Source of the DNA: a virus
Taxonomy: Duplodnaviria; Heunggongvirae; Uroviricota; Caudoviricetes
Length of the DNA stretch: 4,201 bases
Direction: 5' to 3' (one strand)
IMG/VR virus record: IMGVR_UViG_2648501150_000013
Span: 1-4,201 of that record
The notes beneath the pieces were generated by a model that saw nothing but the letters and a program-made list of their open reading frames with translations, was not told where the DNA came from and did not search any database. Shown here in pieces: positions 1 through 4,201 of the stretch; within the stretch, counting starts at the first letter, position 1, and the number at the start of each line of letters is the position of its first letter. The position numbers and the translations under genes are program-made.

Positions 1-560
1 TGGTTCCCAGCCTCATAGGCTACCCGCAACCAGTGCATGAATGTTTCCGCAGACACACAGCCGCAGTCCACATCGATTTCCCCGCGTTGCTGCTCCAGCC
101 ATTGCTCAAAATCTAACTTGTAAGCCTTACTTTCAGGTTCATCACCATTGAACTCGACTTTCTGCGACGCTATGAGAGCGGCTTCGTACTGTTCGCGAGT
201 GACAACCGATGTAAACGCACTGCGATCAAGGTCACTGATATCGCAAATAATGCCATCAATGGAATAATTCTTTGATGATTGGTAATTTTTATGGTGCGTA
301 CCAAAAAGAACCATAGCGCGACTACTACCTGGCATCGTAATGGATAGATGGCAAAAATCTTTTCCATCAGGCCATCCACGCCCCTTAGATAATTCCTTCA
401 CTAACAAGTCAATCAGTGTCATAGCGTTACCATCCTTGCAAGGCGCTAAAGCTATTTTGGCAAGCTCCAATACTTCATCTGCTGCGTATCCAGCACTGTG
501 ACCATACATTTCGATGCTGGTGATAATCTCTGATATGCGTTTTTTAGTGATTCTTGTCAT
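1..560 (-). CDS. Hypothetical prophage protein, partial (start codon at 560; C-terminus lies beyond the left window edge). Its C-proximal part is paralogous to the central module of the 1649..2161 gene.
   Basis: Manual translation of the minus strand from ATG at 560..558 gives an open frame with no stop to position 1 (MTRITKKRISEIITSIEMYGHSAGYAADEVLELAKIALAP...KLDFEQWLEQQRGEIDVDCGCVSAETFMHWLRVAYEAGN...). The ATG overlaps the TGA of the upstream gene (ATGA). It is missed by the ORF track because it has no stop inside the window. Confidence 0.7.
   Translation of the reverse strand, partial: MTRITKKRISEIITSIEMYGHSAGYAADEVLELAKIALAPCKDGNAMTLIDLLVKELSKGRGWPDGKDFCHLSITMPGSSRAMVLFGTHHKNYQSSKNYSIDGIICDISDLDRSAFTSVVTREQYEAALIASQKVEFNGDEPESKAYKLDFEQWLEQQRGEIDVDCGCVSAETFMHWLRVAYEAGN
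7..124. repeat. Diverged direct repeat, copy 1 (partner at 1878..1995).
   Basis: Ungapped alignment at a constant offset of 1871 nt. I counted about 80% identity over the 95 nt at 30..124. Both copies encode the FEQWLEQQ-x-G-x-IDVDCGCVS module of two different genes. Confidence 0.7.
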
Positions 561-766
561 AGTTTTATTTCCTTGCATGGTTCGCCTTTACGGCAAACAG
601 CTACACGGTCATTTCTTACATTAACCACGGTCACCGTTCCGTCATCGCATTGAATAACGATGAAAGGGTGTTCATTCTCTTTTGTGCAATGTTGCTGTTC
701 CCCTGCTATAACAGTGAGGGGAATTAATAAAATAATAATTACTGCGAATTTACTAAATGTTGCCAT
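557..766 (-). CDS. Small cysteine-containing protein (69 aa) with a predicted N-terminal signal peptide or membrane anchor; function unknown.
   Basis: ORF track. The N-terminus MATFSKFAVIIILLIPLTVIAG has a short charged n-region and a roughly 15-residue hydrophobic core; the remaining ~47 residues contain 4 Cys. The TGA stop overlaps the ATG of the next gene. The upstream SD is weak (AGAAAG). Confidence 0.6.
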   Translation of the reverse strand: MATFSKFAVIIILLIPLTVIAGEQQHCTKENEHPFIVIQCDDGTVTVVNVRNDRVAVCRKGEPCKEIKL

Positions 767-790
767 AGCAATCTTTCTTTCTGTTTTTCA

Positions 791-1084
791 TTATGGTTGA
801 ATCCAGTTATCTTCAATAGCAATGCTCAATCTTTGTAACCATTCTGCTAATTTCAGCATTGCTTCTCTTTCGCTTAAACCACGAGGAAAATCATCAAGCG
901 ATATTGTTGGCTTGAAGTTTCCCAAATTATCCATTTCAACGGTCAGATTTTGCTCCAGCACGGTATTCCTTACGCGGCTATTGTGCCGAAGCAAATATAC
1001 TGAACGTGATTTATTGGTTTTGTGGTCGAGCTGATATTCGGTAAGTATCATCTGGCTTCCGCCATGATTATTACCGCGCCACAT
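791..1084 (-). CDS. Hypothetical protein, 97 aa.
   Basis: ORF track. GGAG lies 5 nt upstream of the ATG at 1084. An alternative internal start at Met12 (MILTEYQ...) cannot be excluded. No family recognised. Confidence 0.6.
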   Translation of the reverse strand: MWRGNNHGGSQMILTEYQLDHKTNKSRSVYLLRHNSRVRNTVLEQNLTVEMDNLGNFKPTISLDDFPRGLSEREAMLKLAEWLQRLSIAIEDNWIQP

Positions 1085-1107
1085 AATTACTCCGTGTTAA
1101 TTGAAAT

Positions 1108-1389
1108 TTAGCTATTAATCTTCACTTTTATCGCGAACACCTTTACCGGTTTATCACCGAAGTGCGGATGTGTGATTGTCTTGATTTCATATCCGTCATA
1201 CGGAACATCAATTCTGCGGCTGGAATCGTCGCGCTTCGGATATCCCTTTGTGATAATCAGGCGGTCATACTTACGGTTAACGAGGCGCTTATTCCAGTAG
1301 TCATTACACAGGCGATACTCTTCCGTTTTATCTCCGCGAATCATGGCATCGAAGTATTCACCTTTGACGGCAAGTTGCAGGTTAGCCAT
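1108..1389 (-). CDS. ASCH-like (PUA-fold) small protein, 93 aa; start trimmed relative to the ORF track.
   Basis: A strong SD (GGAGGTGA) precedes the ATG at 1389..1387, so the start is set at MANLQLAVKGEYFDAMIRGDKTEEYR. The G-x-K-T-x-E-x-R motif near the N-terminus matches the ASCH-domain signature as I recall it (for example E. coli YqfB). The ATG overlaps the upstream TAA (TAATG). Confidence 0.6.
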   Translation of the reverse strand: MANLQLAVKGEYFDAMIRGDKTEEYRLCNDYWNKRLVNRKYDRLIITKGYPKRDDSSRRIDVPYDGYEIKTITHPHFGDKPVKVFAIKVKINS

Positions 1390-1649
1390 TACCTCACCTC
1401 CAGTCTCCATACCGCCTGACCAATCCGGCTGGCATGGGTATCTTTGGATACTGTTCCGTCTTTAGCCAGCTCCATAAGAATTTTGCGCAAATCTGCCGAG
1501 CGCCATTCTTCATCAGGAAATTCCTTCTCCATTGCCAACCGCAGATTCCAGGTTGCTATCGTGAATGGATATTCACCGCCGAGAGCTTTCTCTTGTAGGG
1601 CAGCACGGGAACGCATCACCTGCAAAACCTTCTCTTTTACATCCATCAT
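1389..1649 (-). CDS. Hypothetical protein, 86 aa; start trimmed relative to the ORF track.
   Basis: AAGGAGG lies 4 nt upstream of the ATG at 1649..1647 (MMDVKEKVLQ...). The ATG overlaps the TAA of the upstream DUF551-like gene (TAATG). The 24 codons upstream in the ORF track lie inside the preceding gene. Confidence 0.6.
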   Translation of the reverse strand: MMDVKEKVLQVMRSRAALQEKALGGEYPFTIATWNLRLAMEKEFPDEEWRSADLRKILMELAKDGTVSKDTHASRIGQAVWRLEVR

Positions 1650-2161
1650 TACGCCTCCTTCGGCGGTTCTGGTAGCGGCATCCAGTGTGACGGTTTCCAC
1701 GACGCACCAGGAATTATCCACCCATCATTAGCGTCAGGATGCCCGGGGATGTAAGTAGCCCATTTCATTCGCCAGTCACCTTTCCTGTCAAACTCCACGG
1801 CAACAAGAACGGCTGTTTTGGTATTCGGCATTCGCTCACTACAGCTTATCCAACCATCCGGAATTACCGGAGAGTTGCCAGCCTCATACGCCACACGCAT
1901 CCAGTGCAGAAGCATTTCAGTGCTCACACAGCCGCAATCAACATCAATTTTGCCGTGCTGCTGTTCCAGCCATTGCTCAAAAGTTAACTTGTAAGTTTGG
2001 CTTACAGGTTCTGCACTATCAGCTTCGCGCCGCTTCTGTAGCTCTGCTGCCATCGCTCTCACGACTTCAACTGGTGCCCTTGCAGCAAACTCTATGTTGG
2101 TGATCAGCTCATTAAGATATTGCTCGCCTGGATACTGTTTCTTATCGGTTATAGTGGTCAT
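1649..2161 (-). CDS. DUF551-like phage protein, 170 aa; start trimmed relative to the ORF track.
   Basis: AAGGAGAG lies 4 nt upstream of the ATG at 2161..2159 (MTTITDKKQYPGEQ...). The C-terminus (...GWIIPGASWKPSHWMPLPEPPKEA) resembles the conserved end of DUF551 prophage proteins as recalled; this needs an HMM check. The central module (FEQWLEQQHGKIDVDCGCVS...VAYEAGN) is shared with the partial gene at 1..560. Confidence 0.7.
   Translation of the reverse strand: MTTITDKKQYPGEQYLNELITNIEFAARAPVEVVRAMAAELQKRREADSAEPVSQTYKLTFEQWLEQQHGKIDVDCGCVSTEMLLHWMRVAYEAGNSPVIPDGWISCSERMPNTKTAVLVAVEFDRKGDWRMKWATYIPGHPDANDGWIIPGASWKPSHWMPLPEPPKEA
1878..1995. repeat. Diverged direct repeat, copy 2 (partner at 7..124).
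   Basis: See copy 1; lies inside the DUF551-like gene. Confidence 0.7.
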
Positions 2162-2210
2162 ATCACTCTCCTTTTCCCTGAAGCATAGCGGCACGGCAGG
2201 CATTCCACCC
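2159..2210. repeat. Direct repeat of about 52 nt, copy 1 (partner at 2812..2863), spanning a gene junction.
   Basis: catatcactctcc...gaagcatagcggc(a/g)cggcagg is near-identical in both copies, with compensating 1-nt indels. It covers the start codon of the downstream gene, the SD, the stop, and the last ~15 codons (GWNACRAAMLxGKGE) of paralogs A and B. Confidence 0.75.
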
Positions 2211-2540
2211 CTTCACATAACCGAACGCCATCAACTGATCACTCATGGCGGGCAGCATTGTGTGGGTCGTACTGATTTCTTCCGGCACTACCGGCGCTGG
2301 CGGGGCGATGCGTCCAAGCAACTTATTTACCTCTTTCGCCATCGCGTCATATTTATCTAAATGGCGATTAGCTTCTAAGCAGACTCGGCGCATCTGATCT
2401 GAGTTAACTCGTTTAACTGGATCTGCTTCCAGCGATGCCAGCGCAATCCGTGCCAGTTCCATTTGTTCACCACGGGTAAGCCCGTTTTCAAGCGGATTTT
2501 TAATGAACAATTCAATACGTTCTTTGGTAATAGTGGTCAT
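2163..2540 (-). CDS. Hypothetical phage protein, 125 aa (paralog A; possibly Ead/Ea22-like).
   Basis: ORF track. TAAGGAGT lies 5 nt upstream of the ATG at 2540. It shares three motif patches with the 2816..3229 gene (IALASLEA, PAPVVP, GWNACRAAMLxGKGE at the C-terminus). The Ea22-like label is from memory and is not verified. Confidence 0.7.
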   Translation of the reverse strand: MTTITKERIELFIKNPLENGLTRGEQMELARIALASLEADPVKRVNSDQMRRVCLEANRHLDKYDAMAKEVNKLLGRIAPPAPVVPEEISTTHTMLPAMSDQLMAFGYVKGWNACRAAMLQGKGE

Positions 2541-2550
2541 GTGTTACTCC

Positions 2551-2814
2551 TTAACCCGCAGTGCTTTCAACTGATGAGGGGAACAAAATCTTTTCATCAA
2601 ACCCTGCATTCATATCATGGACAGCAACACACCAATCCATTGACGAACGATTATCAAGAGCCTCCATGATTTCATCCATGCGGCGCAGGTCATACAGGTA
2701 AATGCTTTTATCGCCAATGGTGTAAAAACCAATTTTTTTCGGTGATGGGCAGCGATCAAGAACGTCCTGTAATTCGTTCAACCATGCCCGTTCTTTTTTT
2801 GTTAAAGTTGCCAT
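2551..2814 (-). CDS. Hypothetical protein, 87 aa; start trimmed relative to the ORF track.
   Basis: AAGGAGAG lies 4 nt upstream of the ATG at 2814..2812 (MATLTKKERAWLNELQDVL...). The ORF-track N-terminal extension would run through the C-terminus of the upstream gene. No family recognised. Confidence 0.6.
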   Translation of the reverse strand: MATLTKKERAWLNELQDVLDRCPSPKKIGFYTIGDKSIYLYDLRRMDEIMEALDNRSSMDWCVAVHDMNAGFDEKILFPSSVESTAG

Positions 2815-2863
2815 ATCACTCTCCTTTCCCATGAAGCATAGCGGCGCGGCAGGCGTTCCAGCC
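2812..2863. repeat. Direct repeat of about 52 nt, copy 2 (partner at 2159..2210).
   Basis: See copy 1. Confidence 0.75.
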
Positions 2864-3229
2864 TGTAGCGTATGCAGCCGCTTTGCTGCTGCCTTCAACT
2901 GGCGCATCCTGCCAATACATTTCATCCGGCACTACCGGCGCTGGCAAGGCAGCGTGATAGTAGAGTGGCATAGTTTTGTACAGTGGTTCGCCAGGACTTC
3001 CGTCAACCTGATTCCATTCTTCAACCCAGGCATCAACAACCGCTTTGCTGGTTGATACATGTTCTTCTGAATCTACATTTTGTCCTGATATACAGAACAT
3101 AACTGCCTCTGCTTCCAGCGATGCCAGAGCAATTTCATAAGCACGGCGCTCAATATTGTCTCGAACGTCCAAGCTGCCTATGCGCTCTTTGATTTCTTTA
3201 ATCAGTTCTTTGTCGGTAAAAGTGGTCAT
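2816..3229 (-). CDS. Hypothetical phage protein, 137 aa (paralog B; possibly Ead/Ea22-like); start trimmed relative to the ORF track.
   Basis: AAGGAGA lies 5 nt upstream of the ATG at 3229..3227 (MTTFTDKELIKEI...). The C-terminus ...ATGWNACRAAMLHGKGE and the internal IALASLEAE and PAPVVPDE patches match paralog A. Confidence 0.7.
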   Translation of the reverse strand: MTTFTDKELIKEIKERIGSLDVRDNIERRAYEIALASLEAEAVMFCISGQNVDSEEHVSTSKAVVDAWVEEWNQVDGSPGEPLYKTMPLYYHAALPAPVVPDEMYWQDAPVEGSSKAAAYATGWNACRAAMLHGKGE

Positions 3230-3230
3230 A

Positions 3231-3590
3231 TCAATCTCCTTTGGTACCAATGTTTACAGCCTGGCAAGCCTCTTTGAGCACCCAGTCAACAGCGTCTTTC
3301 CATGCTCCGGTTTCGACTGGCGGATTCTCACGCTTTACCTGTTCATAGAAACGCACTGCTTTAATCAATCCTTCTGGTGTCAGTGGCACAGGCGGGACAG
3401 TGAATAAGGCCTGAATCTCATAGCTCGGCCTGTCGTTGCAATCCTCTTTTGTCGGGACATATTTCCAGTCACCAACCCACTGCTTCCCCTGAAAGTCTGT
3501 AACGCCTTTTTTCACGTAGCGATATCGCCATGCCACTGGTTTTGCCTGCCCTGCCTTTTCATGCCCTTCCTGATAATTAATCTCGCTCAT
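3231..3590 (-). CDS. Hypothetical protein, 119 aa.
   Basis: ORF track. The ATG at 3590..3588 overlaps the TGA of the upstream small ORF (ATGA). The SD is weak. The protein ends ...GTKGD, immediately followed by the conserved junction and the next ATG. Confidence 0.6.
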   Translation of the reverse strand: MSEINYQEGHEKAGQAKPVAWRYRYVKKGVTDFQGKQWVGDWKYVPTKEDCNDRPSYEIQALFTVPPVPLTPEGLIKAVRFYEQVKRENPPVETGAWKDAVDWVLKEACQAVNIGTKGD

Positions 3591-3763
3591 TCATCGCCCC
3601 ACTCATCACAATATGCTTCGACCGGTGTTTTCCCTGCTTCATAATCATCACGCCATGCTTCAGCATCAGCGGCACTTCCACCGCGTAACTCTGCATAATC
3701 CATTAACAGTTCATGCCATTCTTCAAAACTGGCGTTATATTTAGTTGAACCAAAATCAGCCAT
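3587..3763 (-). CDS. Small acidic protein, 58 aa, not in the ORF track (below its length cutoff).
   Basis: Manual translation from ATG 3763..3761 to TGA 3589..3587 gives MADFGSTKYNASFEEWHELLMDYAELRGGSAADAEAWRDDYEAGKTPVEAYCDEWGDE, with 16 D/E against 4 K/R. GAGGAAG lies about 9 nt upstream. It fills the otherwise empty gap between two coupled genes, and its stop overlaps the next ATG. Confidence 0.5.
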   Translation of the reverse strand: MADFGSTKYNASFEEWHELLMDYAELRGGSAADAEAWRDDYEAGKTPVEAYCDEWGDE

Positions 3764-3938
3764 TTTGTTCTTCCTCTTCGTCTTTTATTTCGTGGTATGA
3801 GTAATTGCAGTAGTTAAAGAAAATATCTTTAGCTTCATCCTGTATTTCATCTGGTGTTGCATCATCATCCACTTCGAATTCATCCTCGAAATCTCCACCG
3901 GCTATTCCCGTTTCAATAATTATTTTGAATTTTCGCAT
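3756..3938 (-). CDS. Small highly acidic protein, 60 aa.
   Basis: ORF track. MRKFKIIIETGIAGGDFEDEFEVDDDATPDEIQDEAKDIFFNYCNYSYHEIKDEEEEQNG has 20 D/E against 5 K/R. There is no alternative in-frame start upstream, where an in-frame TAA lies. No canonical SD is close to the ATG, and a hairpin sits just upstream. Confidence 0.5.
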   Translation of the reverse strand: MRKFKIIIETGIAGGDFEDEFEVDDDATPDEIQDEAKDIFFNYCNYSYHEIKDEEEEQNG

Positions 3939-4028
3939 TTCACTACCGCCCTTTCGGACGGCCTCCTGATGTTCTGAGGGTGCAGGAATCCCTCCGGTTA
4001 AGGATTAAATTTTTAACAGAGCTAAATT
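3939..4028 (-). promoter_or_regulatory. Intergenic leader upstream of the acidic gene pair: an AT-rich stretch plus a stem-loop with a GNRA-type loop in the minus-strand transcript.
   Basis: This is the only intergenic gap longer than 25 nt in the window. Minus-strand RNA CCGUCC-GAAA-GGGCGG (plus coordinates 3944..3959) forms a 6-bp stem with one G-U wobble, which on the plus strand would be a C-A mismatch. A second 5-bp stem, GAGGG/CCCTC, lies at 3975..3993. An AT-rich segment spans about 4000..4028. Confidence 0.3.
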
Positions 4029-4201
4029 TAATTATTCAGTTCTGGATTTTGTCGCCCTGCGTATCCGCGCTTTCGCGTTACGCTCAATCTGAATTAGCTT
4101 TTCTATATTTTTTCGCCTTTCCCGCTCCTCCTGACGCAAGAGCCTTACATCATCTGCCAGTCTGGTTTCTCTTTTCGCCACAGAGAGCATCCAGTCAAAT
4201 G
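4029..4201 (-). CDS. Possible small basic protein, partial or about 53 aa, Lys/Arg/Glu-rich and coiled-coil-like.
   Basis: The minus-strand frame is open from the right window edge to TAA at 4031..4029 (...MLSVAKRETRLADDVRLLRQEERERRKNIEKLIQIERNAKARIRRATKSRTE). A candidate ATG sits at 4190..4188, but the true start may lie outside the window. The composition is low-complexity, so this could be chance. Confidence 0.3.

Follow-up and report, generated by a model that had tools for sequence, protein, structure and literature searches.

Where does a run of small co-directional genes belong, and what could it do, when none of its members resembles a core phage gene? The question is raised by a stretch of viral DNA of 4,201 nucleotides (nt), the entire draft contig JHRF01000220.1 (assembly GCA_001265355.1; IMG/VR record IMGVR_UViG_2648501150_000013), which was analysed as a whole and is referred to here as the window. 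It carries 13 genes, all on the minus strand, numbered g1 to g13 in the direction of reading, that is, from the right-hand end of the window to the left; 11 of them are complete (58–170 amino acids, aa) and two are truncated at the window ends. An earlier sequence-only reading had described about twelve short genes of 58 to about 190 aa, set on a single strand with minimal spacing, and this description is accurate; its further proposal, that the genes occupy the nonessential early-left region of a lambdoid genome, is probably wrong. Very probably, the contig derives from a P1-like phage-plasmid, as a piece of its hypervariable accessory operon, and this element and lambdoid prophages have traded cassettes in the recent past. 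Taken as a whole, the best explanation, to which we give a probability of about 0.75, is that the window makes up the distal part of a long accessory operon whose genes all run in one direction, most likely that of an Escherichia coli P1-like (Punavirus-type) phage-plasmid, in the hypervariable region that ends at humD-phd-doc.

The P1-like origin is supported first of all by long matches at near identity. Positions 1–1879 are 99.89% identical to a 92.6-kb contig, L017 (and to L018), and two further pieces match the P1-like contig L011, namely 1826–2860 at 99.9% identity and 2921–3536 at 99.8%. In the P1-like relatives, this collinear and near-identical DNA lies just upstream of humD-phd-doc, in a variable region, and the gene order DUF551-86-93-97-69-...-humD-phd-doc (the numbers being protein lengths in aa) is kept. 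Among the genes of these carriers are those for a P7-type C1 repressor, a Cre-like recombinase, a dUTPase and a Tad2-like protein, as well as phd/doc and humD. The homologous block of Punavirus SJ46 sits between pmgS and humD-phd-doc. P1-like phage-plasmids have a variable "region 8" (pmgT...hot, lxr, humD) (PMC9603915), which the block resembles in its placement: in SJ46 and in E. coli plasmids of about 90 kb, it directly precedes (hot)-humD-phd-doc, reads in the same orientation and is hypervariable. The difference lies in the gene content, as judged by names and domains, since the genes before humD (up to ref) in the ~90-kb plasmids bear lambdoid-style names (DUF968, Ead/Ea22, DUF551, ASCH) and not upf or pmg. 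The window's own membership of the P1-like group is deduced from 99.9% identity over 45% of its length.

The distribution among complete E. coli genomes agrees with this origin for the promoter-distal half of the window, g9–g13 (1–1879), which is of the P1-like plasmid type. All 11 complete genomes that cover at least 80% of positions 1–1650 do so on plasmids, and ten full-length matches to this segment, among those listed, are plasmids of 80–94 kb. Positions 557–1084, which hold g11 and g12, fall on plasmids in 311 of 315 places. At the protein level, exact g10 or g12 was found, besides this contig, on P1-like phage-plasmids only, among the contigs listed. Base composition also sets part of this half apart: GC content is 38–40% at 400–1200 (g10–g12 and the 5' part of g13) versus 47–52% elsewhere. 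Because this AT-rich stretch overlaps the almost exclusively plasmid-borne g11–g12 cassettes, the composition suggests an origin other than that of the lambdoid-type cassettes.

The promoter-proximal genes g1–g4 (about 2900–4201) are of the lambdoid prophage type, with 99–100% identity to cassettes of chromosomal lambdoid prophages, and they give rise to the main rival of the P1-like reading. According to this alternative, the contig comes from a chromosomal lambdoid (rac/Stx-type) prophage, from the nin-like region between the replication genes and Q, and its plasmid-type g10–g12 were acquired by recombination. Positions 2415–4201 are indeed 98.4–99.8% identical to chromosomal prophage DNA, positions 3231–4031 are 100% identical to the chromosome NZ_CP048934.1, and the exact g2, g3, g4, g6 and g9 proteins are found on multi-megabase contigs. 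In the two lambdoid prophage contexts that were examined, vB_EcoS-689R5 and strain Nord58, homologues of g1–g8 sit between O or the replication genes and hok-DUF968-RusA-Q, in the early-right operon. The nin-like region is also alike in kind, being made of small co-directional genes read from an early promoter, with g1–g8 collinear at 98–100% identity. It differs in that g10–g12 are essentially absent from chromosomes, and no classical nin gene (ninB, ninG/rap, rusA and others) lies inside the window. A chromosomal origin is further opposed by the plasmid location of nearly all g11–g12 DNA, by the finding of exact g10 and g12 on P1-like phage-plasmid contigs only, by the 99.9% identity of 1–1879 to such plasmids, and by the presence of the g1–g4 block on P1-like plasmids as well, at the corresponding relative position. 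We regard it as unlikely.

Several points weigh against a P1-like phage-plasmid as the source. The contig has no flanks, and hence no neighbouring int/xis or N/cI genes, so its replicon is inferred. The g1–g4 part is mostly chromosomal in E. coli, with 3231–4031 (g2–g4) on the chromosome in 4399 of 4544 places in complete genomes, and four chromosomal places carry the g11–g12 segment, 557–1084; the latter may represent P1-like elements that have become integrated, as described in PMC10879196. With respect to control signals, no minus-strand promoter was found anywhere along the operon in the relative L013. The P1 C1 operator consensus ATTGCTCTAATAAATTT, with up to 3 mismatches allowed, was absent from the window and from two P1-like relatives, which lends no support to control by the repressor. 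As for function, the genes gave no match to known families for anti-defence, exclusion or regulation, and the functional statements made below draw solely on fold, composition and analogy.

Two observations on the P1-like relatives may be recorded here. In L013, the operon promoter would be expected in the divergent spacer between ref and the DUF4406 gene (17852–18125), which is AT-rich, 270 bp long and contains repeated TGATT/AATCA-like motifs; neither a sigma-70 consensus on the operon strand, by a simple scan, nor a match to the C1 operator was present in this spacer. In L004, L017 and L020–L025, a conserved divergent cluster lies a few kb past humD-phd-doc, with a Tad2-like gene (PF11195 / DUF2829) beside the dUTPase gene; the genes for the Cre-like recombinase and the P7-type C1 repressor also belong to it. 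A known anti-Thoeris family bears the name Tad2.

The early-left placement proposed by the sequence-only reading would put the genes on the pL transcript of a lambdoid phage, in the nonessential exo-xis or b2-ea region between exo and xis/int. At the level of single cassettes there is evidence for it. In the Stx phage PA33 and in phage 21, ASCH genes (91–95% identity to g10) and DUF551 genes lie between xis and exo, directly upstream of xis/int; short pieces of the window have matches in Stx phages, beside int, at about 2–9 kb in the records; and depositors have named some orthologues Ea22 or EaA. Like the window, the exo-xis region of lambda and the Stx phages (orf60a, orf63, orf61, orf73, ea22, ea8.5) is an early, non-essential mosaic of small genes in which ASCH and DUF551 cassettes occur, and it holds a conserved orf60a-orf63-orf61-orf73-ea22 block (PMC8614690). 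However, ASCH and DUF551 are the sole cassettes of the window that are also found beside xis/int, and the matches consist of single cassettes of less than 0.8 kb, in several pieces, which make up at most 23% of the window. The long-range synteny lies elsewhere: every long collinear, near-identical match is either in P1-like plasmids, upstream of humD-phd-doc, or in the replication-to-Q block of prophages. Nor did Pfam or NCBIfam models detect a marker of the exo-xis block in the window, whether the TraR/DksA zinc finger (orf73) or Ead_Ea22, orf60a, orf61 and orf63 not having been searched for specifically. Early-left is the least supported location for this mosaic, and we hold such an origin to be highly improbable.

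Whatever its replicon, the block is a recent recombinational patchwork of near-identical pieces. In none of the phage records or complete E. coli genomes does the match extend over 80% or more of the window; some part of it is present in 4217 of 5426 complete E. coli genomes. Of 29 homology breakpoints, 9 lie no more than 12 nt from a gene boundary, versus 9.6% expected (P = 0.0012, from 24 related loci that are not independent of one another). Recombination is frequent in P1-like phage-plasmids, in which about 30% of genes have been reported to recombine (PMC10879196). The cassettes of the window circulate among four kinds of accessory region, including the lambdoid nin-like region, the P1-like region upstream of humD and an SSU5-like one. 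All related loci belong to phages, prophages or phage-plasmids, which upholds the earlier view of a phage-borne, non-core accessory array; neither a non-phage context nor a housekeeping family, the two outcomes named beforehand as contrary to that view, came to light in the loci of the relatives or in the protein searches.

A side observation concerns the SSU5-like phage-plasmids (L005, L006, L008 and L009; about 68–109 kb). The cassette that they have in common with the window is g6-g7-DUF551, and its neighbours there are ParA, RNase H, HD-domain and DUF4942 genes, along with a 677-aa methionyl-tRNA-synthetase-like gene with tRNA-synt_1g, Anticodon_3 and tRNA_bind domains.

Are the 13 open reading frames (ORFs) functional genes at all? 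The same set was obtained from the ORF listing, from a hand reading of the window ends and from public gene calls on the identical contig. About 96% of the sequence is coding, and the intergenic spacers measure −8 to +24 nt, the single exception being one of 93 nt between g1 and g2 (3939..4031, minus strand). PHROG families are matched by 12 of the 13 genes, with E = 1e-13 to 1e-52 (4.4e-19 for the best match of g7). The ratio of non-synonymous to synonymous polymorphism (pN/pS), measured against homologous alleles in related loci, is 0.02–0.39 for all nine comparable genes, which are all under purifying selection, and GC skew on the plus strand is negative throughout. Given the PHROG matches, the low pN/pS and the uniform GC skew, the ORFs are real genes and not chance frames. 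Exact window proteins also recur on tens to more than 1000 contigs.

These data bear on another possible view of the array, in which the ORFs would be what is left of larger Ea22/DUF551 genes, decaying or fragmented and now without function. It could be suggested by a near-identical plasmid in which g7 and g8 are one fused gene of 298 aa, and by the several pseudogene fragments that RefSeq marks in homologous regions. Yet all 11 complete ORFs are intact, each with its own start codon, Shine-Dalgarno boxes are present at four repeated junctions, and the split forms of g5 and g7 end at one conserved ..GKGE stop junction. In view of the pN/pS values and the recurrence of exact proteins, the decaying-pseudogene reading was rejected; it is very unlikely to be right.

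One transcript, with translational coupling, presumably covers all 13 genes, which are tightly packed or overlapping and show no internal promoter or terminator signals: on the coding (minus) strand of the window, neither a sigma-70-like promoter nor an intrinsic-terminator-like site was found. This transcript would be part of an operon of about 12 kb that ends at humD-phd-doc. No Rfam family was found in the window at E <= 1. In the 93-nt spacer, an AGGAGG box stands about 27 nt upstream of the g2 ATG, and in between lies a GC-rich 7-bp hairpin with a GAAA loop, which on a folding model could move the Shine-Dalgarno box nearer to the start codon. The stability of the hairpin is like that of shuffled sequence (z = −0.64) and no terminator-like T-run follows it; with a fold z of this size, a regulatory RNA upstream of g2 is not claimed.

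Judged by their sequences, g4, g5, g7, g8 and g13 are one module-shuffled family of the Ea22/EaA/DUF551 type. They are tied together by phrog_60, phrog_660 and phrog_3323 and by pairwise similarity, and the five paralogues draw on a set of reusable modules: an N-terminal helix, MT(T/R)ITK; a PAPVVPEE linker; a GWNACRAAML helix; an AEPVSQTYK / YKLxFEQWLEQQ linker; and DUF551. The first of them, g4 (3231..3590; 119 aa; pN/pS 0.39), matches phrog_660 with E = 2.9e-45, a family also matched by g5 and g7. An N-terminal MTTFT module, a proline-rich PAPVVP linker and a C-terminal GWNACRAAML..GKGE helix make up g5 (2816..3229; 137 aa; phrog_5117, phrog_660 and phrog_60), whose orthologue in phage vB_EcoS-689R5 carries the label "Ea22 protein". 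Its paralogue g7 (2163..2540; 125 aa), at 34% identity, was found as an exact protein only on contigs of at most 109 kb. Both have counterparts in longer proteins. A 264-aa DUF551 protein of L024 (8327–9121) has an N-terminal half 50% identical to residues 1–134 of g5, and g7 is 75% identical to residues 1–127 of a 298-aa DUF551 protein in L017 (8845–9741), in which g7 and the DUF551 part of g8, separate genes in the window, form a single protein. From these fusions in L017 and L024 it follows that split and fused forms of the same modules coexist in the population.

The DUF551 domain itself (PF04448) is C-terminal in g8 (1649..2161; 170 aa), after an N-terminal module and a linker. The match is a full-length one, of 75.7 bits against a cut-off of 22, and spans residues 117–182 of a longer, 184-aa call (2203..1649), or about 103–168 of the 170-aa gene; the exact g8 sequence was found on this contig only. 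The last gene, g13 (<1..560), is cut by the window at its 3' end, leaving its first 186 codons (at least 186 aa), and has an MT(R/T)ITK N-terminal module and matches to phrog_924, phrog_60 and phrog_3323. Its linker, residues 136–186, is 71% identical to residues 46–96 of g8, and the g13 and g8 regions are related by a direct repeat, 3–148 / 1874–2019. Because the two genes have this upstream linker in common, a DUF551 domain presumably follows that of g13 beyond the contig end. A record outside the enterobacteria came up in connection with this domain: OR850331.1, entered as "Staphylococcus phage SA 1298 Kay" (1719 bp), contains 58 nt at 96.6% identity to an enterobacterial DUF551 gene, and is probably mislabelled or contaminated.

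Four gene junctions carry a common repeat of 32–74 nt (repeat families D2 and D3). At 2137..2210 it consists of the last ~15 codons of one gene (..GWNACRAAMLQGKGE), the stop codon, a Shine-Dalgarno box and the ATGACnACnAT of the next gene; copies are found at 2790–2863 (82%) and 3205–3278 (61%), and a 32-nt core appears again at 2526–2557. Related Ead/Ea22 proteins terminate in ..AAGIRIKGE, which resembles these endings. According to published work, Ea22 proteins have a mosaic build, with an N-terminal segment, a coiled coil and a C-terminal domain that varies, DUF551 being one of its variants (PMC10834534). The window paralogues have a similar mosaic architecture, DUF551 included, but differ in the coiled coil, as the Pfam Ead_Ea22 signature (PF13935) is present in no window protein. 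BLASTP of the window proteins against five PF13935-positive neighbours gave no match, and only terminal modules and junctions are in common, via phrog_60, phrog_660 and phrog_3323.

Turning to the remaining genes, g1 (4032..>4199) is represented by its last 55 codons, its 5' end being cut by the window; this tail is very basic and helical, with an isoelectric point of 11.1, and matches positions 70–121 of the 134 in phrog_1621 (E = 9.5e-19). The mini-protein g2 (3756..3938; 60 aa) belongs to DUF7167 (PF23768), which it matches over profile positions 1–60 of 60 with 54.5 bits against a cut-off of 24.4, and to phrog_1997 (E = 2.7e-30); it has a net charge of −15 and a pN/pS of 0.02. The next protein, g3 (3587..3763; 58 aa; phrog_519, E = 8.5e-23), has a net charge of −12 and a pN/pS of 0.10, and a search of its homologues for fusions or names returned 69 clusters, all unnamed and all from Enterobacteriaceae. 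By analogy, these two hyper-acidic proteins may mimic proteins or DNA.

An orphan family is represented by g6 (2551..2814; 87 aa; phrog_1714, E = 3e-50), with about 143 representatives at 50% identity and the conserved motifs GFYTxGD and, at the C terminus, FPxxVxSTAG. It has no Pfam or PDB match, and a Pfam scan of nine longer homologues found no partner domain. The orphan g11 (791..1084; 97 aa; phrog_1258, E = 1e-48) is AT-rich and almost exclusive to plasmids, which were P1-like where the context was examined. A hydrophobic, signal-like N-terminal segment and four Cys in the mature part characterise g12 (557..766; 69 aa; phrog_20764, E = 1.6e-51), which is predicted to be a small exported protein.

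Two genes receive new annotations from structure models. The first, g9 (1389..1649; 86 aa), is called "eaa protein" in databases; its model has the topology H1-b1-H2-H3-b2-b3, with significant structural matches, and on this model g9 is a stand-alone winged-helix protein. Its most conserved residues are in the wing (S74, R75, I76, G77, A79 and W81), and its best match in a viral structure library is an uncharacterised phiTE protein. It probably binds nucleic acid, as its modelled fold would suggest.

The second, g10 (1108..1389; 93 aa), is, as judged from fold and motif, a GKER-type ASCH (PUA-like) protein. The assignment is made on these grounds because the Pfam ASCH model (PF04266) stays below threshold, with 13.7 bits against a cut-off of 21.2 (E = 0.11). 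The structure model shows the beta-barrel ASCH fold, and the GxKxxExR motif (G19, K21, E24 and R26), invariant in 42 homologues, sits between helix 10–18 and strand 23–27 of the model, that is, in the alpha1-beta2 region. The ASCH octapeptide GxKxxExR has been located in the alpha1-beta2 cavity (PMC6803910), and EOLA1 is described likewise. According to a 2026 preprint, the Lys/Glu dyad of the GKER subgroup is catalytic in the deacetylation of N4-acetylcytidine (ac4C) in tRNA, and 19 of 19 tested ASCH proteins, none of them phage-derived, deacetylate tRNA ac4C. The named comparators of g10 are the ASCH ac4C amidohydrolases or tRNA ac4C erasers E. coli YqfB, TthASCH, EOLA1 and TRIP4. By its modelled fold, g10 probably binds RNA or deacetylates ac4C. 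In E. coli, ac4C is found at the wobble base of elongator tRNA-Met.

Beyond these annotations, database searches bear out the statement of the sequence-only reading that no core function is recognisable. DUF7167 (g2) and DUF551 (g8) are the sole Pfam families recognised among the window proteins, and every PHROG match is in the "unknown function" category. NCBIfam gave nothing, and the PADLOC-DB defence models 0 matches, for the ten proteins scanned (g2–g11), and PDB sequence and profile searches with g6, g8, g9 and g10 returned chance-level matches only. The Pfam hits AnkX_ins, DEDDh_C, Terminase_3, DUF1843 and Phage_Gene47 were far below their cut-offs and were dismissed as chance. The names given to the window proteins in the sources are "hypothetical", "eaa protein", "ASCH domain-containing", "DUF551" and "DUF7167", and no core phage, housekeeping, defence or described anti-defence or exclusion family was matched by any gene.

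What, then, could the genes do? They would be individually dispensable accessory functions, expressed with the early or lytic programme of the element. By analogy with the exo-xis region (PMC3824215) and with Ea22, which is pro-lysogenic in lambda and in Stx phages (PMC7093339, PMC10834534), they probably modulate host physiology or the balance between lysis and lysogeny.

A more specific proposal, compatible with any genomic location, sees the block as an anti-defence or host-takeover island, in which g2 and g3 would counter restriction or other defences that target nucleic acids by mimicking DNA or protein, modified RNA or DNA would be the target of g10, and the Ea22/DUF551 proteins would tune lysis and lysogeny. 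An anti-defence reservoir is a reasonable prior for regions of this kind (bioRxiv 10.1101/2023.04.06.535777). The phage accessory regions described by Silas et al. (bioRxiv 10.1101/2023.04.06.535777) are likewise made of variable, horizontally exchanged small genes at a fixed site between conserved genes, and the block, being hypervariable, cassette-like and co-directional, resembles such regions that hold counter-defence genes. The strong negative charge of g2 and g3, packed into ~60 aa each, the intact GKER motif of g10, the pro-lysogenic role of Ea22 and the Tad2-like gene a few kb away in the P1-like relatives are all consistent with the proposal. The window genes differ from those of Silas et al. 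in having no demonstrated or homology-inferred counter-defence role: none matches a described anti-defence, exclusion or defence family, the families of the block are absent from the searched text of that accessory-gene screen (bioRxiv 10.1101/2023.04.06.535777), and acidity alone is weak evidence. We treat the island as a tentative possibility.

A bolder version is still less likely. It holds that undescribed host-manipulation cassettes move between phage-plasmids and prophages, with g10 as an ASCH eraser of ac4C in host tRNA or mRNA and with g2, g3 or both as DNA- or protein-mimic inhibitors of host nucleases. If this were true, the g10 eraser could retune translation or disarm a process that depends on RNA modification.

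The window is a new mosaic of an already well-known and common kind of region. As it stands it matters little, such regions being present in most E. coli genomes and routinely annotated as hypothetical. It does provide a clean case in which P1-like phage-plasmids and integrated lambdoid prophages have exchanged accessory cassettes very recently (99.8–100% identity), and its breakpoints, at conserved junctions and inside the module-shuffled Ea22/DUF551 family, illustrate the gene flow of Pfeifer and Rocha (PMC10879196). Two genes hitherto labelled "hypothetical" or "eaa" gain fold-level annotations that are directly testable, a GKER-type ASCH protein and a stand-alone winged helix, and the 11 conserved small genes form a compact set that can be used in screens for anti-defence and host-takeover functions. 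The significance of the region would rise if g10 or the acidic mini-proteins prove to be host-manipulating.

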